From Moniliella sp. 'wahieum' (Eukaryota), in NCBI GenBank assembly GCA_003971905.1, contig RSEE01000144.1:62001-126000 (forward strand): a DNA stretch of 64,000 nt. Direction: 5' to 3'. Positions 4,417-53,900 of the stretch are shown piece by piece. A program made the position numbers and the translations under genes. The notes under the pieces are model-generated. The model was not told the DNA's origin. It did no database searches and saw only the letters and a list, made by a program, of their open reading frames with translations. How positions within the stretch are numbered: position 1 is the first letter of the stretch; each line of letters begins with the position of its first letter.

Positions 4417-4845
4417 GGCAGCAGAGCGGTAGGGGGTGGTGGTTGCACAAGAGAAAGCGCCGGACGCGCAAGACGATCGTGGCGCTGCGGGCGTCCAAGC
4501 GCACTGGCTCGGCCTCCTGCGTGTGGGCCACTAAAAAAAAACCAGCGAGGAAAAAGAAAACGGAAAAGAAAGCCATATTAAAATCAAAAAGAAACTCCAT
4601 CCGGGCCGTTGCACCGATGCGAATCGAACAGCGCACGCCTCCAAACAATGCACCGATCGGCTATGCGCGGTGCTAGGGTTTGCCCGCCATTTTTTTTCTT
4701 TTCGAGGGATTTAGCCTGTCTTCTCCGTCTGGGCCCAGCCTGGGCTCCCGATGGGACAGCCGCCGGGCACGGCACCGCCTGAACGTGGGGCCCCTCCTGC
4801 CTGTTCACCACCATTGGTCGCGGCTGCTCCCCTTCTCCCATCCCC

Positions 4846-7360
4846 ATGTCCGACGCCTTTACCGCGCTGCTGCCCCCGCGCCTCTGCGCATCCTCATCCT
4901 CGGCTCCGGTGGCCGCGAGCACGCACTGGCCCACCACCTCGTCGCCAGCCCGCGCGTCGAGCACGTCTTTGTCGCCCCTGGCAACGGCGGCACCGCTTCG
5001 GCCGACGGTCCGCTGCACCAACCTGCCTGAGCCCAAGGTCAGCGGCACCGACTTCTCTGCCATCACCGCCTGGGCCCAGCAGAACAAGATCAACCTTGCC
5101 ATTGCCGGGCCCGAGCAACCGTTGGTGGACGGCGCCGAGGCTGCCTTCCGTCAGGGTACGTATCTCCTTCCCTCCTCCCTTGCGTTTTCTCTTGATGGCC
5201 ATTGCGCAGGGAAGCAGTGGCTGACACGATGAGTAGCTGGTATCCCCATGTTTGGTCCTTCGCCCGTCGCGGCGCAGATGGAGGGCTCCAAGACCTTTTC
5301 CAAGCACTTTATGGCGCGTCACCAGATCCCCACGGCCGAGTACCAGTCTTTTACTCCGCAGCAGGTGAACGAATGTCTGGCGTACATTGAGAAGTTGGGG
5401 GGTGCGCAGAAAGTGGTGCTCAAGGCGAGTGGTCTTGCCGGCGGGAAGGGTGTGCTTTTGCCCGAGACGACGGCGGAAGCCAAGCAGGGTGTGGAGGACA
5501 TTCTGGTCAAAAAGGTGTTTGGGGGCACGCCGGCTCGTCGCTGGTCATTGAGGAGCGTCTCGATGGCCCTGAGCTGTCGGTGCTTGCGTTTAGCGACGGT
5601 ACACGATCAAGGCCCTGCCGGGCTGCCAGGACCACAAGCGCATTGGCGAGGGGGACACTGGGCTCAACACGGGTGGCATGGGCGCCTACTGCCCTGCCCC
5701 TGAGGGTGTGCCATTTGAGCAAGAGATCTACGACACGGTGCTTAAGCCTACGATCGATGGCATGCGCGCGGATGGGCTGCCGTTTGTGGGGTGCTCTTTG
5801 TTGGCCTGATGCTCACTTCGCGTGGGCCCAAGGTCCTCGAGTACAATGTCCGCTTTGGTGACCCGAAACGGAGGCGGTGCTGGAACTTCTGGAAACGCCT
5901 CTTGGGGAAATCATCTTTGCCTGTGTGGAGCGCCGCCTCGACACTGTCGACATCAAGATCAAGTCGGGCAGCGCGGTGAGCATCATTCTTGCCTCCAAGG
6001 GGTACCCCGGTAAGTACCCCACTGGCCTCCCGATCACCTTGCCGGCGGCTTCAGCTCTGCCCAAGGGCGTGCAGATCTACCACGCCGGCACCAAGATTGT
6101 GGATGGCCAGGTGCTCACTGCTGGCGGTCGTGTGTTGGCGGTGAGCGGGGTGGGTGCGACTCTGCAAGAAGCGCTGAAAGCTGCGTATGCCGGTGTCGAC
6201 CTGATCCAATTTGAAGGCAAGACGTTCCGTCGGGACATTGCCCACCGCGCGCTCACCGCAGCTTCTACGCAGAAGCAAGAGGCACTCACCTATGCTTCGG
6301 CGGGCGTTTCGATCGATGCCGGGGACGCGTTGGTGCAGGCGATCAAGCCTCTGGCCAAGTCGACTGTACGCCCTGGGTGTGATGCGGATCTGGGTGGGTT
6401 TGGCGGTGCGTTTGACCTCAAGCCGCTCGGGTTGAAGGACCCCATCCTGGTTTCGGGTACCGACGGCGTGGGCACCAAGCTGCGTGTGGCGCTTGATGCC
6501 AACAAGCACGACACGGTCGGCATTGACCTGGTGGCCATGTCGGTCAATGATCTGTTGGTGCAGGGCGCGCTCCCGCTCTACTTTTTGGACTACTTTGCTT
6601 GCTCCAAGCTGGACGTCAAGGTGGCTGCGGCTGTGATTGGTGTGTGGCCGAGGGCTGCCGACAGGCCAAGGCCGGCCTGATTGGCGGTGAGACGGCGGAG
6701 ATGCCCGGTATGTATGAGGGGGACGACTATGACCTGGCAGGCTTCGCCGTGGGCGCAGTGGAGCGGGTTCAGCTGCTACCGCGTGTGCAGGAGATGCAAG
6801 CCGGGGATGTCTTGATTGGCCTGGCCTCGTCGGGGCTGCACTCGAACGGATACAGTCTGGTGCGCAAGGTGGTGGCTCGCTCGGGGCTGAGCTACGGGGC
6901 TCCGGTGCCTTGGAGCAAGAGCGCGAACGAGGCCCCGCTGCCGGCGACGCTGGGCGAGGCGCTGCTGGTGCCGACGCAGATCTATGTGCAGGCACTGGCG
7001 CCCCTGCTGCAGTCGCCTGAAGGTTTGCTGGGCATGTCCCACATTACCGGCGGTGGCTTTACCGAAAACATCCCGCGTGCGCTCCCGGCACACCTGGGTG
7101 CGCACATTGACCTCACTGCGTGGGAGCGACCGGGTGTGTTTGGCTGGATGCAGAAGGTGGGCAATGTGGAGGCGCGGGAAATGGCCCGGACGTTCAACAA
7201 CGGTATCGGGATGGTGCTGATTGTGCGCAAGGACCAAGCGGAGCGCATCCTGACGTTGCTCCGGACGGACCCGGCGGCGGCGGCCCCCCCTGTGGTGATG
7301 GGAGAGCTGGTGGCCGGCTCGGGCGTGTCGTACACTGGGCTGGACAAGTGGGCCAACTGA
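4846..7360 (+). CDS. ADE5,7: Bifunctional GAR synthetase / AIR synthetase
   Basis: [34 protein letters not shown] (GARS). [48 protein letters not shown] (AIRS). Intron about 5156-5236. Several 1-nt indels. Confidence 0.96.
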
Positions 7361-7883: not shown

Positions 7884-9467
<1,584 letters not shown>

Positions 9468-10254
9468 AGGCGCCTTGACTTCGCTCCTGCCTGTATTGCA
9501 CTTGTACACTAGGTTGTAATGCTACATCATCGAATCATCGTGTAACATGGCGAGCCTCCGGGTTTACTAGCTGTAGTTGTAGCTATTAGCACTGAGCTTG
9601 AAGGGTCGAGCGTATGCCCAACCAGCCAGATCATTCTTGTCCTTCACCAGTGGAATAGTATCAACAACTGTTGAGACGGAAGTGCTATCAGCATGCCACG
9701 AGTATCGGTGCACCACTGCAGCAGGTTCCCCTCCAGCAGCCTCCACCTGTCAACGGCTTGTCCGTAACTCGGGCTGTATAACTCGTTGGATGAGAGTTCA
9801 TGCGATTCCCGTCCCCCGGTATCAAAGGAAGATTGGTATACTATGCGCTGTTGCGCATACGATGCAGATACTACTATGGCAATGCCCAGAGTATCACGAC
9901 AGGAGAAGTTTTACTTCTTCCCAGCCCAATCATTAAACATTGGGATCGAATAGCGTTCTTTGACCGATGGCGCACGGTGAAAAGTGAGTCTACCACGACT
10001 GCTTCCATTCCAATCCGAATCCATCTAGCATCCACGAATTCCAGTCCGTGATAACTGCCATGAATGTTGAGAGTGAACGTTGAACCAGCATATGGGCATA
10101 CCCTAGTTGCGCACCAGCAGTGGGTCTGATAGATGCACATATGACTTGGCGATGCTCCGACTGGGGTGAACTATGGAATGCATGGAAACAGTAGGCATAA
10201 ATCTAGTGGTACAGAGGGGCACAGGAGGAGGATCGATGAGGGGAGGGAAGGGGT

Positions 10255-11695
<1,441 letters not shown>

Positions 11696-18572: not shown

Positions 18573-21118
18573 TCACAGAAAGTTGAGGGCGGCCAAGAGC
18601 TTGTCAGCAGGGTCGTCATCCAACCGAGCCATCTCAATTTCCGAGATGAGCTTCTTGATTCCAATTTGTAGCGGCTTCTGGGTGCCCAGTCCAGCCTGGT
18701 TGAGGAGCGTCATGCACCGCGCCTGTTCCTCCTCCGTTTCAAACAGCGAGGTAGCACGCAGCACATGGTCCACCTCACGCAGCGACTCGATTGACGGGAC
18801 AGAGATGTCAGCGTAGAAGGACTGAGCAATCTCCATTTCCTCCAGCATGGGCTTGTTGCTAGAGGTGACAAGGACCAACAGGCGCTTGTCCTTGGGCGGA
18901 CGGGTCAACAGGACCGACAATGCCTGCAGCACCGTATTTTGGAAACGAGGGCCAATGGGAACCCATTCAATCAGCTTCTCAACCCATCCACCACAATCAC
19001 CGACAAGGGCGATTTGTAGGCATCGTTGAATACCTTATTGATGTGCTGCACCTTGGCCGGCTCGTTCATGCCAACCATGTGTTCCGGGAGATGATCTGGA
19101 TAAAGGGGAAATCACTTTGCAGCGCAATCGTTGCCGCCAGCGCGGTCTTACCGCTACCGACAGGGCCGTGGAGTAAGGCGGTGACCAAGGGAGTACGCGA
19201 ACTCTGCCGCACTTGTGCCACACGTAGCGCACCATCCCGCAAAATGGCGTCCACGTGGGGAGCAAACTTCATGATGCCGTTGGCCACGACCGCCTGCAAG
19301 TCATCCTCCGACACACCAAACGCAGGATGCACTTCATCGAGTGCATGGAAAAAGTCGTCACGGTTCACCCGCATGTTCTCTACATCGTCCGAGATCCCCG
19401 CCGTGGTGCCGACCTTGACATGGCGATTGAACGCAAACGAAGTAGCGCTCTTGACCAACCCAGCAATTTCGGCACCAGAGAAATTCTTGGTGAGTGCTGC
19501 CAGTTCGCCTAGATCCACATCGTCGTCCATCACGCCTTTTAGTCATCTGGGCGGTTTGGATGTTGAGAATTTGAACGCGTCCGTGTTCGTCGGGCAGACT
19601 GATCTCCACCGGCACCTCCAGACGACCGGGACGCAGAAGAGCTTCATCAATCATGTCCAGACGGTTGGTCATACCAATGATGAGAATGTTGTTGAGTTGA
19701 TTCACACCGTCCATCTTGGACAGCAGCTGGTTCACCACCGAGTCACCCACGCCAGTTCCACCACCCGTCGTACCACGCTGCTTGCAAACCGCATCCAGTT
19801 CATCAAAGATGATGATGTGCAGCCCCGAGTCATCTCCCTTTTCCTTGTACTCCTTTTCAGCGTCGGCAAAGAGCTTGCGAATGTTCTCTTCACTTGCACC
19901 CACGTACTTGTTGAGGATTTCGGGCCGTTAACGATTTTCGGCTCCCGTGCGTTGAGCATTTTGCCAATCTGACGCGCAAGCAACGTCTTGCCAGTACCCG
20001 GGGGACCGTACAGGATAATACCCTTGACATGTTGGATGCCCAGCTTCTCAACCAGAGCAGGCGGGAAGATACGCGAGGCGAATGCGCGACGGAAGATTTG
20101 AGAAAACTCCTCATCCAGACCACCGACGCCCATGTCCTCAAATTTAAAGTTGGGCTGCAAAATGGCATTGGGGGGCGCACGCTTGGAGTTGCCACGCAGC
20201 TTCAGAGGGCTGTTCTGGGCCTTGGAGTAGGAAAGCGACGTTTCTGACACCAAGATACCGCGGAACGAATTGGGCGAAGCAGCGGTGGCTGCTGCAGAAG
20301 GCTTCTCCAGCATCGCCGCATCCACCACATGGACAGCTTTGACCACGAGCAACAACTGCTGGCCATGGAACTCTTGCACCAGCTCCTGGCCAACAGAGAA
20401 GACGTGACCGTTAAACAGACGCAAAAAATTGCTTGCCAACTCGTCAGTGCTGTATGGTTCAACGTTCTCGACCCCGCGGGCAAGGAAACTGGCTTCAAAG
20501 TCAATTCCACCAAGGTAAATTTGACCGCCGTCAGAACGAGGGTCATACGGCGTGACCGAAACGGCTTGGCCAATGCTTAGACGAGCCCAGCGACGCTGAA
20601 GCATGGCCACACCGATCGTACCTGGTGCAACTGTGCCGGTGCGGTCCATACTGCAGGTGCAAGCGAGGAGGTCAGTGTGGTCTGGCGCAAAAGGGCGGGG
20701 AGGGGGGGGAGAGTACGTACACAGCGGTGAAGGCGAAGTTGCGGTCGAGGACAACATATTTCGTGTCGTGCCACTCGTTGGGGTTAAGGACAATGCAGTT
20801 GGACAGGGTGTAGTCCTTGGGCGAAGTAGAGACGGTGTAACCGCCAACGCTAGAAGAGGGGTAGGAGCTCTTTTCACGGGGTAGTCCTGATACGGCGCAG
20901 GAGCAGGTGCTCCCCGTGGAGGAAGAGACGGAGCAGAAGGCGCATAACCTGACGCGGCGTGCCCAGTAGGAGCGTACCCGGCACCGCGGGGAGGCGGTGC
21001 GGGGGCGCGGCCGGCTACGCCATATGCGGACCGGTCGCTGGTGGGGGGGGCACGGGGGCGGCAGAGCGCCCGCCATATGCGGACGGTCGCCGCCACTCCC
21101 ACGAAGGAATCCAGCCAT
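18573..21118 (-). CDS. SEC18: Vesicle-fusing AAA ATPase NSF/Sec18
   Basis: [61 protein letters not shown], and D2 Walker A GPVGSGKT. Intron 20651-20720. Confidence 0.96.
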
Positions 21119-22498
21119 GATGTGAGAAGAAGGGAAAGGAGGACGGAGGAAGCGGTTGGTGGCGGGCGGGGGCGGTAGTAGTGGTGGTGGCGGGGGTGGC
21201 GGGGGTGGATGCCAGTCAGCCAATGGCCGTCGTGCCGTTGCACGTAATGCCACCAGCAAAGCGAGGGGCGTGGCGCATGCGTATTACGTCACCACCAGCT
21301 GAGCAGCTGCTGGTTATTAAACTTTCACCCACAGCGGAGGCAGTCGACGGGCGGGATTACGTGGTTACGCGATTGCGTTTCCCGTGCAAGCGTTGCGTCG
21401 CAGTCGCATTCACGATCGGTGATCGACACACCCCGCATCGTTTCCTCGATGCAATTTCTGCCCCAAAACGCCTCCAACTCTGTGCGGCAATGGAGCTCGG
21501 ATAGAGGGAGGGGAGCAGCCATTGCGAACGCCCGCACCCGCAAACACGCCGCGAAAGCCGCTGTGGCAGTGTTGAACGTGCCGAGTACTACGTTCTCGAC
21601 GCTTGGAGCTTTGGAAGAGAGCGTTGATGGCAGCGTTTATAGCGGACTTCTACACCTGCCTCACCACTGCTGTGAGCGCTCAGGGAGAGCGAGCAGCCTC
21701 GCGTCTCACGATTCAGTGGTAGACTGCGCCGCGTCTCTTGCTCTCATGTACATCGCTTTGCTCGCAGCCTCATCGATCATCCCTAATCGGCCTCATCGGC
21801 GCGTCATTCTGCATCATCGATCATCCCTCGCTCCTCCGTACTCACACTCGCTCCCGCAGTCTATATAAGGTCTCAATAGCAGAGACCGATGACAGAGACA
21901 CCCGGAGAGACGGGGGTGGGTATGTAGAGTGCATACCAGAAGCTGCCTCAGGCCTCAGGCCTCGAGCTTCAAGGCCTCAGGACCTCAAAGTAAGGCGAGA
22001 AGAGCGTCTTGACGCACAATACCCCCGGGGGGTTGGAGCCTGTGGGAGGTCGTGTTGTTTTGGAGAGAGGCTTGAGCTGGCATGCACAGGCTTGAATTTT
22101 GATCCGGGCGTGTGTGGCTGGGTACGGTAACCGATGGCAGTGATAGCCGTGAAGGGTGCCAGGGATGTCCGATGTACCCTTGCACACCTGAGCACAACCC
22201 CACCCACACACTGTACCTCAGTCTGTGGAATCCAACTCCAGAAGCGGTGTATATCAATATGCCGCTCCTCAACTGCATTCTAGTGTGCCCTTCTCTTCAT
22301 TCCCCCGTACTTTCACCCACTCATCGTCGTTTCCCATAGCATTCCCACTGTCACCACATGTCTCCTTCCAACGCCGCGGCGGACTTGATACACCAACACC
22401 GGATCCTCTTCTCGCCAGAGATCCTTCCATCCACTCTCTCCCGTCCGTCCCCCCGGCTCACCTTCAATCCAGGACGAGACGGAGCCAGCTCAGAAAGA

Positions 22499-46477: not shown

Positions 46478-48244
46478 TCACAGGTCCGTCTTGGCCTCCA
46501 CCGCCCCAACCAGCTCCCGCATCTTGCCCGCTGCGAACTCCGTCACCTCGTACAGCTTGGCCTTGCCCAGTTGGTAGCCCTGAACAGCCAGCAGCGAAAC
46601 AGGATCCTGTTCGTCCATGTAATAGTACCACTGTTGTCCCAAACTCCAGGTCAGTACCCCAGCCCAGAAACAACCTCCAACACGAAGACATCTCCACGTA
46701 CCGTAATTTCCCAGGCAACCAGCGTGACCAACAGCACAGCCACAAACAAGACTATCATGTAGCAGAACATGAACCAGTACAGTTCGCGGACATCCGCTTT
46801 CTGCCGTGCCTTCCGTTTATCCTCGTCCACCATGGCCTTAATCGTAGCCTGAGAAGTGCCTTGTGCACTCACTGACGGGTCCAACGCCAGGGCCAACGCG
46901 GTGGCGCGGCGCTCCTCGCGCATCTGCTCGACCGCCTTGCGTCGAGACAACGCGCCCGGCGGCGCACCCCCAGCGCCGTACCGCTGTTGACCCACCACCG
47001 TAGTAGGAGGACTGACAAAGGAAGGGTAGTGCGACTCGCACCACACTTCGATTCGCGACAGTTCCACCCCCCACTCGACAAAGTTCAAGTCGTCGGGGCG
47101 AAGGCGGGCATGGATTTTCCGAGCATAGTCGCGGAAGATGTAGGCCACGTCACGATTGTTCGTGGCCGAAATAATGAGCTTAACGGCTTGGCCCTTGCGA
47201 ATCTTGAGGTTGCGCTTAAACACTGCCGGGTTGTCAAACAACAAGTCCAGTGTTGCAATCGCCATCACTTGCGGGATTGCGGCAAAGTTGAACACACTTT
47301 GTTCGTGCAGCAACGTTAGGTTCCAATACATATGTCACATGGCTCATTGCGTCCAGCAGCATCGTCGACAAGACGCCCATTGTCCGCTGGCCCAGTTCCC
47401 CTTCCACCGGGCGGTACTTGCCCGGTTGCGTACTCCTCCACACCCTTCGCCACCTCAGCCTGCGACGTGAACGCGCACCCGGGGCGAGACCACGCTTCGG
47501 CGGGCCAGAAGAAACGGCCTTCGTCACAGTCCTCCGCATAGTCACGGATAATGTTGGTCTTTTGAAGGTACAGACCCATGTGGTTGGACAACCCCATCTG
47601 CTGCCCCACCAATGGTGACTCCAGCCCTGAGGCCGAGAAAAGGCGGCTCAATCCTTCGCCTACAAGACCAGCGACAAAGTGACAGTACAGGTCATAGTCG
47701 GCCCATTTCTCCACCTTGAGTGTGCCCTTGGCACTGGCCAGCTCAATGTACGACGCCATCCCGCCGCCCATCTTGGCCGTCATGTCGGCAATCACTACTT
47801 GGTACTTCTCCTCCAGCAAGCCAAACTCGCCAATGATCTTGTCAAACTCGACCAGCAGTTGGCGGTCCTTTTCGTTCGGACCGGACTCGGTGAAGGTCCA
47901 GCCGGGCTGGTACAACTTCTTGTGGAAGGAGGTGAGGAGGGGAATCTTGACCTCGGGCGCGATGGTCATGTCGTCCTCGACAGTGTCGAGTCCACGGAGA
48001 ACGAGATAGTAGATGCAGATCACGCGCGCCAGCTCGCCCTTGAGCTCCTTGATGACGGCAGAAAAGGAGCGCGAGGTGAGGTCGAGGAAGTGCCAGCATT
48101 CGCGCATCTGGTCGCGGTCCCAGCCGCTGGCTTCGGGGTTGGAGGTGATGTCGTTGAGGGGGTCATGCATGAGCTTGTACTGGAGCAGGGAGCGCAGCTC
48201 CCGGGATGGGTGAAGAGCAGCGCGAGAAGCTGGGATGCGCCCAT
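46478..48244 (-). CDS. ERG9: Squalene synthase
   Basis: TSRSFSAVIKEL, YLVLRGLDTVEDD, YCHFVAGLVGEGL, MGLYLQKTNIIRDY, FAAIPQVMAIATL, C-terminal TM segment. Intron 46631-46701 adds a last exon ending ...VEAKTDL*. Confidence 0.96.
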
Positions 48245-48969: not shown

Positions 48970-49076
48970 GGAGGCATAGCCTAGTGGTCTATGGCATCGT
49001 ATTCAAGTCATTAAGCACTTCCGCTTAAGAGTGGATGGAACTGCGACATTCGTGGGTTCGAGTCCCACTGCCTTCA
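48970..49076 (+). tRNA. tRNA with CAA (Leu) anticodon, 33-nt canonical intron (49008-49040) and short variable loop
   Basis: Acceptor GGAGGCA/TGCCTTC with A73. D-arm GCC-TAGTGGTCTAT-GGC. Anticodon stem TCGTA/TGCGA with loop TT-CAA-G|C. T-arm GTGGG-TTCGAGT-CCCAC. Confidence 0.9.
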
Positions 49077-49077
49077 C

Positions 49078-49092
49078 TTTTTAGCTTTTTTT
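49078..49092 (+). terminator. RNA polymerase III oligo-T terminator
   Basis: Runs TTTTT and TTTTTTT immediately 3' of the tRNA. Confidence 0.75.
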
Positions 49093-50404: not shown

Positions 50405-50941
50405 GCCCTTGTGGCTTTGCTTACCGCATTCGTTGCAGATGTCTTTGTGCGTGTATGGGTATTACGCATGAGGCTCATTGACTCATCAACGCCCGCCTTG
50501 GCCAAGCTGCACCTGCCCCCTGGTCGTGGGCGTGTAGTTTTGCCGGCCAGCGTAGGACGCCTTTTTGTGCTGTGCACAACTGCCCCCCACGTCCCAAAAA
50601 CCTCCCCGATGTACTTTGGTTGGCTCTGATAAGGTTCCACCACTAATCGTACCTCGTTATGACTAGTCTGGAGGTCATCGTAGTTCGCTTTTGTTCCCCA
50701 TCATATTTCCCAACAGGTGGCAGAGGCAAACGGTCGGTAGCCTCAGATCCTTGACAGGATACGGTCCATGGGAGTATGCAGAGATGAATTGCATGGGTCG
50801 AGCCCCTGCCTCGCCCATACAGAGCGGGCAGGGACGGTATCAGACAAAATGGAGCAGACAAAAGGGAGCTTGTACGAAGAGCAATGGTGACGGCCGCCCA
50901 GGAGGCGAGGCGCAACAGAACAGAATGTTGCGCACCTAGAT

Positions 50942-53900
50942 TTACCGGCCCGATCCCTTCGCCTTGGTCATACGAATACTGGGCGCGACCAAGGGTGTCA
51001 TCGTCGCCGCAATTCGACCTGGGTTGGGACTTACATGGCCCGGCGTGGGCGCAGCGGAAGCAGGGGTGGAGCGATTGTGAGCCATGTGGGCCTTGATCAG
51101 ATGTCCGGCCGCGAGGGCTGACATGAGCGATAGTTCCCCTGCCATCACCGCGGAGGCAATGATGGCGGCGAGCCGTTGAGCGTTGGCGCCTGGCGTGGAA
51201 GGGTGCGGCCCAGCAATGCCCAGCAGCTCGAGCATCGACCTGTGGGTCCAGCACCGTCCCCCCGCCCACCGTTCCCACTTCGATGGAGGGCATGGAAACC
51301 GAGATGCGCAAGTCCCCTCGGGCGTGGCCTCCATCAAGGTCATGCAGTTGCTCGACTCGACGTTCTGCGCAGGATCTTGCCCCGTGGCAAGGTAGATGGC
51401 AGTAAGAATGTTGGCGGCATGGGCATTGAAGCCGCCAATGGAGCCGGCCATGGCCGAGCCAATCAAGTTCTTCTTCAGGTTCAAATCCACCAAAGCGGCA
51501 ACCGAGGTCTTGAGCACCGAGCTCACCACTTTGTTGGGTACCACCGCTTCGGCCACCACCGATTTGCCCCGACCTTCAATCCAATTGATCGCAGCGGGCT
51601 TCTTGTCCGTACAGTAGTTACCCGATAGGGCCAGAACCTTCATGGAGGGGAAGTGCTCGGTGGCCATCAATGTCAGCGCACGCTCAACCCCTTGGAAATC
51701 ATGTTCATGCCCATCGCATCCCCCGTCGAGGTGGCAAAGCGAATAAACAGGGTTCGACCCGCTAGCGCGGTGCGCAAACTGGCCAGTCGGGCAAAGCGGG
51801 AAGTCGAGTCAAAGGCAGCCTTGATCGTCGCCGCACCAGTGGTGGAATCGATCCATCTCTTAGCCTGCGCCGCTTCGGCCGCAGTGGGGAAATCGACGGC
51901 GGGGCCGCGCGTCATGGCGTCTTGCGTCAACACGGTTGTCACGCCCCCTCCCGCATTCAGCGCCTTGCACCCACGCGAAGTGGATGCAACCAGAGTACCT
52001 TCCGTCGTGGCCATCGGGATTGGCGTAAGTTGGCCGTCAATGGTAAGAGGACCCGCAATGCCGAGCGGCAAAGGAAGGTAGCCCACAACATTTTCACAGC
52101 ATGCGCCCATCACTTGCGCATAGTTATAGTTCTTAAATGGCAACTTGCCCGTCTCCAGCGTTTTGGTCAAGCTGGCACGCGAAACAAGCGCACGGCGGAC
52201 ACGAACAGCACGCTCGGGGTCTTGAAGTACCTTCTCCAACGCGTAAGCAGGAATCTTTCCCCGCTGGGCAAGTAACACTACTTCCTCGTCCGCAAGGTAG
52301 AGCACACCGGCGCCATTGTCGTACACCTCCAATACTTCCTCGAACGAACGGATCTGCGAAGCGTCCACGCCCGCCGTGGGAGGTGTAGGATCTTCTCCCT
52401 CCGGCACAATCAGCGCAGGGGGGCGGCATAAATGTCACCGTGGGAGCGGAGGGCGGGAAGGGTTGGCATTGGATGAGTTGGAACGGGACGATTTGGCGAT
52501 GCGGGACTCGGCTTCATCCAAATGAGCCCAGCATACGAGCAGCGGCAAAAGCAGCGGCACCCATAGCGTTACCTCGGGCAATAGCTGCGTTGCCTTGAGC
52601 AATGCCTCGGAGCAGGTACGCGTTGAGAAAGATGCTCACTGCCATCGCGATCGAAAGCCACTTGGAAATAAGAGGGTCACCAACAATTGAGGTCCATTCA
52701 GTCATCAGGCTACCCAAGACCTCTAGCGACTGGTGGCGCGAAAGCAAGCCTGTCGATCCGCGCGAGCTGTTAGTCGAGAAGGAAGGATGAACTGAATGAG
52801 TTGCCGAGGACGATGAGGCGATCGACACTGACGTCAGGGAGGGGAATTGCTGCTCATATGCCTCGGCCAATGTCTTGGCAAGTTCAGCTTTCTCGTCCGA
52901 CACCTGGTTGGTCAGGAGTAATCGATCACCGAAAGGAAAACCGGGTCATGGATCTGCAAGCGGGCGCCAGTGGGATGGGAACGAGCAAACCGCTCGAGCG
53001 CTGGCGCAAGTGCCGGCGAGGAAGGGGTTAAGGACAAGTTGAACTGTGTCGCTGACGGAAGTAGCTGGTACGGATCGTTCACGGTAGCGCTCGGGGACGA
53101 AGGTAGAGGCAACTTCGGACGTGGCAGCACGCAAGTAGCGAGTGCGAGAAGCCTGCGTTGTCATGGTACCAAGTAGGTTGAGGCTGTGTAGCGTGATGAA
53201 GGAAGCAATCAACAAGATTTTGAGCCGGCCCACGGGTTATTTTTAGAGTTGGAGCCAACCAGGCGGTGCCAGAGCCCACGGACCCGACGGGACCGAGAAT
53301 GCTGCCGGTGACGCAGCTGGGCTGACAGCCCAGCCAAAGGAGGGGCAGCATAGTTGAAGGAGTGATCGAGATGGAAGATACACGACTGCTTACTGCGCTA
53401 TCGGCACCCTTGATTGTAGGGGTAACCGAGCCGGACGTCGTAGCGCTTGCTACGCCGCCGCTGGTGGGCGCGGCTTCCTTGTTAACGGCCGATGCGGCTG
53501 GGAGGGAAGCGTGGCGGCGCTTACGCAAGATCCGGATCCGCAGTACCTCAACAATAACGGTCAGGATGCCAGTGTAAAACGTGTGGAGAAGAATGGCATC
53601 GAAGAACAGGATCAGTGCCGCGAGCTGGCAAAATTCATGCAGGCCACTAGGAGCAATGCACGAGCCCGCAAGCAGCAAGGCCAACTCGATCGCATAGTCA
53701 CGAACGATTTCTTGGCCAACACTGTCATATGCACCCACCAACACGTCACGGGCAGCCAGCGGACGGGGAAGCTCCCACTCGAGATCGGGATTTTCGCGCA
53801 AGCGGGCAGTGAGGGCCCGAACAAAGGCATCCTCATTCGACTTGGGTGTATCGGCGGAGTTCCCATTGAGGGCCGGCTTTCCCTCGCTAGCTCCTACCGA

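Follow-up and report, generated by a model that had tools for sequence, protein, structure and literature searches.

The long variable arm of tRNA-Leu is held to be near-universal outside animal mitochondria (PMC9976931). In the 64-kb stretch of DNA analysed here, called the window, there is a tRNA gene with the leucine anticodon CAA and a variable loop of 5 nt. The question raised by this locus is what such a gene encodes. A sequence-only reading had offered three explanations, namely a natural class I tRNA-Leu, a tRNA whose anticodon was switched, and a deletion introduced by the assembly, and these stand as the correct set of options.

The gene spans 107 nt with its intron (48970..49076, + strand), as delimited by Rfam family RF00005 and by the minimum-free-energy fold. 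It matches RF00005 over model positions 1-71 of 71 with 48.6 bits and an E value of 2.4e-07, against a gathering score of 29, and so, with the whole covariance model covered and the gathering threshold exceeded, it bears the marks of a nuclear tRNA gene. It is the sole tRNA match to Rfam in the 64-kb window, even at a permissive E<=1. ARAGORN without its intron mode returns 0 genes in the same 64-kb window. The 5' exon (48970..49007, +), as defined by the sequence and the Rfam alignment, comprises the 5' strand of the acceptor stem, U8 A9, the D arm, A26, the anticodon-stem strand TCGTA, and U32 U33 C34 A35 A36 G37. The anticodon CAA, which reads UUG, lies at 49004..49006 (+) in the sequence, in the Rfam alignment and in ARAGORN output. 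The 3' exon (49041..49076, +; sequence, Rfam and fold) starts with C38 and continues through TGCGA, the variable loop, the T arm and the 3' strand of the acceptor stem to A73. The predicted length of the mature tRNA is 74 nt prior to CCA addition.

All stems of this molecule are paired, and U8, A14, G18G19, U33, the T loop and G15-C48 are all there. The acceptor stem GGAGGCA/TGCCTTC has seven pairs, one of them G-U, and is followed by A73 as the discriminator. The D arm, GCC(T)-AGTGGTCTA-(T)GGC, has three Watson-Crick pairs plus U13.U22, and its loop of 9 nt is AGUGGUCUA. The anticodon stem TCGTA/TGCGA has five pairs including one U-G, the anticodon loop is TTCAAG, then the intron, then C, and the T arm GTGGG-TTCGAGT-CCCAC is standard. 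The anticodon stem is separated from the T stem only by the variable loop CATTC (49047..49051, +), the same 5 nt in the sequence, in Rfam and in the folds; its C48 is able to pair with G15. The sequence-only reading had described a clean cloverleaf with a 33-nt intron at 37/38, on which the Rfam insert and the minimum-free-energy folds agree, and its five bases between the two stems were reproduced base for base. A type II tRNA has a variable region of >10 nt formed as a stem-loop, and this is absent here, since the region is 5 nt both in the Rfam alignment and in the best fold. What is present is the combination that defines a type I tRNA-Leu, a leucine anticodon (CAA) with a short variable loop (5 nt).

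Signals for RNA polymerase III accompany the gene. The A box TAGCCTAGTGG agrees with the consensus TRGYNNARNNG at every specified position, and the B box GGTTCGAGTCC agrees with RGTTCRANTCC (both consensus sequences from PMC11028032). A scan for bacterial promoters and terminators around the gene gave nothing relevant. Two runs of T, T5 at 49078-49082 and T7 at 49086-49092, begin 2 nt past A73 (49078..49092, +), and these we take to be the Pol III terminator.

The intron, 33 nt at 49008..49040 (+), is located at the canonical 37/38 position by the Rfam insert, by the minimum-free-energy fold and by the constrained ensembles described below. In the RF00005 alignment the anticodon loop carries an insert of 36 positions, made up of 3 loop positions and the 33 intron bases. 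With its site at 37/38 and the mature domain intact, this is a canonical pre-tRNA intron. As a rule, the 3' splice site of such a precursor lies in a bulge, and an anticodon-intron pair forms between position 32 and intron position -3. In the predicted precursor U32, U33 and C34 are paired with A, A and G at intron positions -1 to -3, and C38 is bulged; U32 could instead form a wobble pair with the G at intron position -3.

The 3' end of the intron, TGGAA, is complementary to TTCCA, the 5 nt of a loop with a CCA anticodon, and the perfect pairing had been pointed out in connection with a Trp-like origin. The complement is real but it is not specific to Trp. When all 64 anticodons were compared, the intron complemented the TAA and AAG loops over 5 nt as well (CTTAA), the AAT loop over 6 nt and the CAA loop over 3 nt. 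TAA is itself a leucine anticodon, one transition from CAA. With the TAA loop complemented equally well, intron complementarity was rejected as a sign of a former CCA anticodon.

The absence of a long arm is a matter of folding as well as of alignment. Folded without constraints, the 107-nt precursor has the short-arm cloverleaf as its minimum-free-energy structure, at -36.3 kcal/mol (z -2.33), and the spliced 74-nt RNA has the cloverleaf at its minimum, at -26.5 kcal/mol. ARAGORN in intron mode parses the gene with a 17-nt intron, an anticodon stem UCGUA/UAAGA that contains a G.A mismatch, and a variable region of 21 nt. The stretch TAAGA (49026..49030, +), which is the 3' strand of the anticodon stem in the ARAGORN fold, is intronic in the preferred one. 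To say that there is no long arm is therefore to prefer the better of two folds. For the comparison, the acceptor, D and T stems were fixed and each anticodon stem was forced in turn. The ensemble free energy of the precursor was -37.1 kcal/mol for the short-arm form vs -27.9 kcal/mol for the ARAGORN long-arm form, a gap of 9.2 in favour of the short arm. The 90-nt product of the ARAGORN splice sites has no cloverleaf at its minimum.

Shuffling provides a measure of how readily either parse arises. The 44-nt segment that separates G37 from the T stem was shuffled in 20000 trials, and a long-arm parse was scored as equally good if it had at most one mismatch, an arm of 10-24 nt and a stem with five or more pairs. 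Parses equal to that of ARAGORN were found in 950/20000 shuffles, and allowing a 4-pair stem raised the count to 2937/20000. Only 303 of the 20000 gave an anticodon stem of five perfect pairs with 4-5 nt after it. The energy gap, the failed cloverleaf of the 90-nt product and the shuffle counts together indicate that the short-arm reading is what the sequence was built for, and by this modelling the choice of the short-arm fold over the ARAGORN fold is well supported. The long-arm parse, reached in about 5% of shuffles, is near chance, and it is possibly an evolutionary trace.

The tRNA gene is flanked by two genes of the sterol pathway on the opposite strand, less than 3 kb apart across it. 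One is a squalene synthase of the ERG9 type (46705-48212, -; PF00494), 73% identical to an NCBI protein, 70% to that of Pseudozyma flocculosa and about 60% to Agaricomycotina proteins; these identities speak for a basidiomycete close to the Ustilaginomycotina. The other is an HMG-CoA reductase (50646-52434, -; PF00368). A core histone cluster occupies approximately 7887-11692 of the window, with an H2A segment from 9054 (+) and H4 from 11384 (+). The minus strand carries ORFs with a histone fold at 7887-8722 and 10206-10679; they likely encode H2B and H3, which points to an arrangement in divergent H2A/H2B and H3/H4 pairs. After ...NKKSRV the reading frame of H2A is broken, either by an intron or by an error.

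Several genes of the window report on the quality of the assembly. In the squalene synthase there are two frame changes within about 150 nt (47176-47422, -), and the protein alignment is continuous across them; residues 16-276, 278-328 and 313-360 of P0001 are aligned in three successive frames with no protein gap. The HMG-CoA reductase, a GARS-AIRS gene (4783-7357, +) and an AAA ATPase gene (19069-21288, -) are each broken up into ORFs that overlap and differ in frame, and in the reductase a stretch of about 25 residues is out of register. In the window the errors shift the frame by 1-2 nt and come at a density of about one to a few per kilobase. Among the frame changes examined in its genes, no deletion of several bases was seen. 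From their sequences, the broken essential genes look like the product of an unpolished long-read assembly with 1-2 nt indels rather than pseudogenes.

Which amino acid the tRNA would carry can be judged from identity elements. For yeast tRNA-Leu in vivo, A73 and G37 have been reported as essential for leucylation, and mutation of A35 lowers charging (PMC3488233). All three of these LeuRS determinants are found in the present tRNA, as the sequence-only reading had noted, along with the elbow elements G18G19, U8-A14 and the T loop. A G37 that follows A36 is typical for Leu and Phe tRNAs, and an intron is carried by the tRNA-Leu(CAA) genes of yeasts and animals. In E. coli, tRNA-Leu variants that lack the long arm remain charged (PMC9976931). 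Human LeuRS, for its part, is described as using the long arm together with the acceptor pairs A4-U69 and G5-C68 (PMC11028032; PMC6614811). The corresponding pairs of the present tRNA are G4-C69 and G5-C68, and G4-C69 in place of the A4-U69 used by human LeuRS is a point against the leucine-charged reading.

Tryptophan was the other amino acid considered. The eukaryotic TrpRS requires C34-C35-A36, G1-C72, U5-G68 and A73 (PMC11028032). Here A35 and G5-C68 are found instead of C35 and U5-G68, and with just G1-C72, C34, A36 and A73 matching, tRNA-Trp identity was rejected. The acceptor end had earlier been called Trp-like; its G1-C72 and A73 are indeed present, but with C35 and U5-G68 absent a Trp origin is not backed.

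The D stem had been described as Leu-style, and it does have three Watson-Crick pairs. A search of metagenomes for the exact 19-nt D-arm sequence gave 4 loci, at which ARAGORN predicts two bacterial-type tRNA-Pro(TGG) genes of 77 nt and two tRNA-Ser(GCT) genes of 76 nt. The same 19-mer in a short-arm tRNA-Pro(TGG) shows that a short-arm core can accommodate this D arm, which is hence no marker of Leu. No orthologue of the present gene was found among these 4 loci. A scan of viral contigs with a degenerate pattern of D arm plus anticodon loop gave 0 matches, and a similar pattern in prokaryotic genomes gave 6 loci, 0 of them with a tRNA gene. The tRNA-Ser genes of the metagenome scan, on contigs L002 and L004, have the anticodon GCT, a length of 76 nt, a short variable loop and a 19-nt D arm identical to the one described here; this is another short-arm tRNA bearing the anticodon of a long-arm family.

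The meaning of UUG in this genome was read from conserved proteins. In H4 the invariant Leu of GLGKGG is encoded by TTG (1/1), and in H2A all 3/3 Leu residues of YLAAVLEYL are. The HMG-CoA reductase has 12 TTG codons aligned with human HMGR, opposite L (7), four further aliphatic residues, namely V (2), I (1) and M (1), and K (1); two more, which coincide with a frame break or fall beyond the aligned region, were left out of the 12. Among the five TTG codons of the squalene synthase, three are at Leu-majority columns, and one is at a Thr-majority column in which Leu is the residue of the two closest relatives. The fifth (47612-47610, -), residue 187 of the ORF starting at 48170, falls in a column with Trp in 44/60 homologues, the two closest included (context ERPW vs ESPL). 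The other 20/21 aligned TTG codons of H4, H2A, HMGR and squalene synthase are at Leu or variable positions.

Reassignment of UUG to Trp, or an ambiguous reading of the codon, was considered and rejected, as a single TTG in a Trp column stands against 20 that fit, and one base substitution turns TGG into TTG. The codon at 47612-47610, one base off TGG, could be a genuine W-to-L change or a base error. Because the lone TGG/TTG difference is in a variable column of an error-prone assembly, it is not evidence of recoding, and on these alignments UUG is leucine in this organism. The sequence-only reading had come to the same view from TTG at invariant Leu positions of H2A and H4, and the HMGR and squalene synthase alignments concur. 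In 16 Pfam-supported ORF segments TTG accounts for 90 and TTA for 12 of the 457 Leu codons. The commonness of TTG implies that the cell needs an ample supply of Leu-tRNA for UUG.

A type I tRNA-Leu(CAA) has been described in GC-rich Streptomyces coelicolor, where it is charged by the single LeuRS and where knockout of its gene was not achieved (PMC6614811). Long-arm Leu isoacceptors coexist with it, and its type I structure is tied by the authors to UUG being common and UUA rare (PMC6614811). The two cases have in common the anticodon CAA, the short variable loop, a GC-rich genome and frequent UUG beside scarce UUA. In contrast, the S. coelicolor gene is bacterial and intronless, and its tRNA is recognised via C74 and a special insertion domain of LeuRS rather than via A73 (PMC6614811). 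The need of that short-arm tRNA for the insertion domain is a point against the leucine-charged reading of the present gene.

Other systems resemble the present gene in part. The type I tRNA-Leu of animal mitochondria also has a short variable loop and A73 and is charged by LeuRS (PMC9976931; PMC6614811), but it is organellar, has its own LeuRS, lacks an intron and Pol III signals, and belongs to AT-rich degenerate structures. In the nematode nev-tRNAs, as here, the arm class of a nuclear tRNA is mismatched to its anticodon; the mismatch runs the other way, however, since these tRNAs combine a long-arm body with a Gly or Ile anticodon and receive Leu (PMC3333845). In the open-access literature searched, no functional eukaryotic cytosolic short-arm tRNA-Leu was found to be reported, and only a Met-derived human gene comes near. 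Like the present gene it is eukaryotic and nuclear, has CAA as its anticodon and lacks the long variable arm (PMC8450103). It arose recently from tRNA-Met(CAU) by U36A, shows seven differences to Met-CAT-3-1 and is probably silent (PMC8450103). The present gene differs from it in its G37, its intron and its long D loop. That the sole eukaryotic nuclear precedent found for CAA without a long arm is probably silent is a point against the leucine reading.

Among ordinary leucine tRNAs, S. cerevisiae has 10 tRNA-Leu(CAA) genes (PMC11028032). Compared with canonical tRNA-Leu(CAA), the variable region here is 5 nt instead of >10. Features presumably shared with the yeast and human tRNA-Leu(CAA) are the loop UUCAAG, the intron at 37/38, A73, G18G19, the 3-pair D stem and the 9-nt D loop with GGUCUA. 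In the core, we take the yeast and human tRNAs to have G9, G13.A22 and G26, against A9, U13.U22 and A26 in the present gene.

The possible explanations can now be weighed. If the ARAGORN reading were true, the gene would encode a long-arm tRNA-Leu(CAA) with a 17-nt intron at 49008-49024 and a 21-nt variable region in which a GGATG/CATTC stem closes a 9-nt loop. This is precisely the parse that intron mode outputs; it would give back the expected tRNA-Leu architecture, and the number of shuffles that equal it shows that such a parse is not trivially expected. It is nonetheless highly improbable, being the less stable precursor fold by the full energy gap given above, with a mismatched (G.A) anticodon stem and a product that lacks a cloverleaf minimum. 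The Rfam covariance model chooses the 33-nt insert. Its arm stem abuts the T stem without a position 47/48, and its arm loop is 9 nt; known long arms are unlike this. Further, U32 is opposite C at intron position -3, and the anticodon-intron pair, which is required for 3' cleavage, is missing. An artefact of assembly, in which the true gene is an ordinary long-arm tRNA-Leu(CAA) that was shortened by about 8-12 nt of variable arm, is unlikely too, although less remote in a sequence where frameshifting indels are many (squalene synthase, HMG-CoA reductase, GARS-AIRS and AAA ATPase). It had been remarked in advance that such a deletion would exceed the 1-2 nt errors elsewhere, and this holds for the window; a loss of 8-12 nt that leaves all stems and loops canonical is a different kind of event. 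The deletion would by chance have to spare a perfect anticodon stem, exactly five loop bases ending in C48, and canonical lengths of all the other loops. Core positions 9, 13, 22 and 26, which are off the yeast/human pattern, suggest an adapted core and not a simple deletion. If this explanation were correct, the locus would be a warning on tRNA calls in unpolished long-read assemblies.

The third explanation is one of origin and function. The gene could be a short-arm tRNA of another isotype that gained the anticodon CAA, or a decaying copy of tRNA-Leu minus its arm. Its product would then be silent, poorly charged or a low-level mistranslator, and long-arm tRNA-Leu(CAA) genes elsewhere would decode UUG. 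We regard this as rather unlikely, while giving it some weight. Arm-less 'Ser' tRNA-like repeats occur in the basidiomycete Serpula lacrymans (PMC8450103), and shifts of the anticodon between alloacceptors have been described from yeasts and animals, mostly at position 35 (PMC3923123). The D arm, present as an identical 19-mer in 77-nt tRNA-Pro genes, is not specific to long-arm tRNAs. The 5-nt complement of the intron 3' end to the CCA loop also speaks for a shift, but it is equalled by the complement to the TAA loop. The one squalene synthase TTG aligned with a Trp-majority column is likewise set against the remaining tested TTG codons, which fit Leu or variable positions, and the Trp determinants C35 and U5-G68 are missing. 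G37 is inconsistent with an origin from Met or Val tRNAs, which have A37. Signs of decay, such as mismatched stems or missing conserved bases, are absent, and the tRNA is single copy in the window, not a repeat. Were the gene anticodon-shifted, it would be a candidate natural mistranslator of UUG.

The explanation that we tentatively favour, with a little less than half of our confidence behind it, is a real, intact gene for a short-arm tRNA that reads UUG and is charged with leucine. A small share of the odds falls to explanations other than the four weighed here. The gene, its fold, the position of its intron, its promoter boxes and its terminator are all in place. Transcription by Pol III would produce a precursor with the canonical 33-nt intron between 37 and 38, and splicing at the sites given would yield a 74-nt type I tRNA with the anticodon CAA and a short variable loop. 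Its likeliest function would be to bring leucine to UUG codons, with charging by LeuRS via A73, (m1)G37, A35 and the G18G19/T-loop elbow, not via the long arm, as reported for yeast LeuRS. Such a tRNA would be to the eukaryotic cytosol what the type I tRNA-Leu(CAA) is to S. coelicolor.

A bolder version of the leucine reading concerns descent. The tRNA may derive from a long-arm ancestor through a shift of the 3' splice site. In that event the intron would still contain the former strand of the anticodon stem, TAAGA at 49026-49030, along with the 5' half of the former arm, and the new strand TGCGA, taken from the loop of the old arm, would close the anticodon stem. The proposal stems from the long-arm parse, which is still readable in the gene at a level that was reached in 950 of the 20000 shuffles.

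It is possible, though doubtful at present, that this is the first eukaryotic tRNA-Leu of type I to be encoded in the nucleus and to work in the cytosol, serving as a regular decoder of UUG in a GC-rich basidiomycete yeast or smut relative. If a working short-arm tRNA-Leu does exist in the fungal cytosol, it would be a caveat for annotation pipelines in which the arm is used to call Leu or to flag pseudogenes. It would provide a natural test case for adaptation of the tRNA core after arm loss, and it would mean that a eukaryotic cytosolic LeuRS can dispense with the long arm in vivo.
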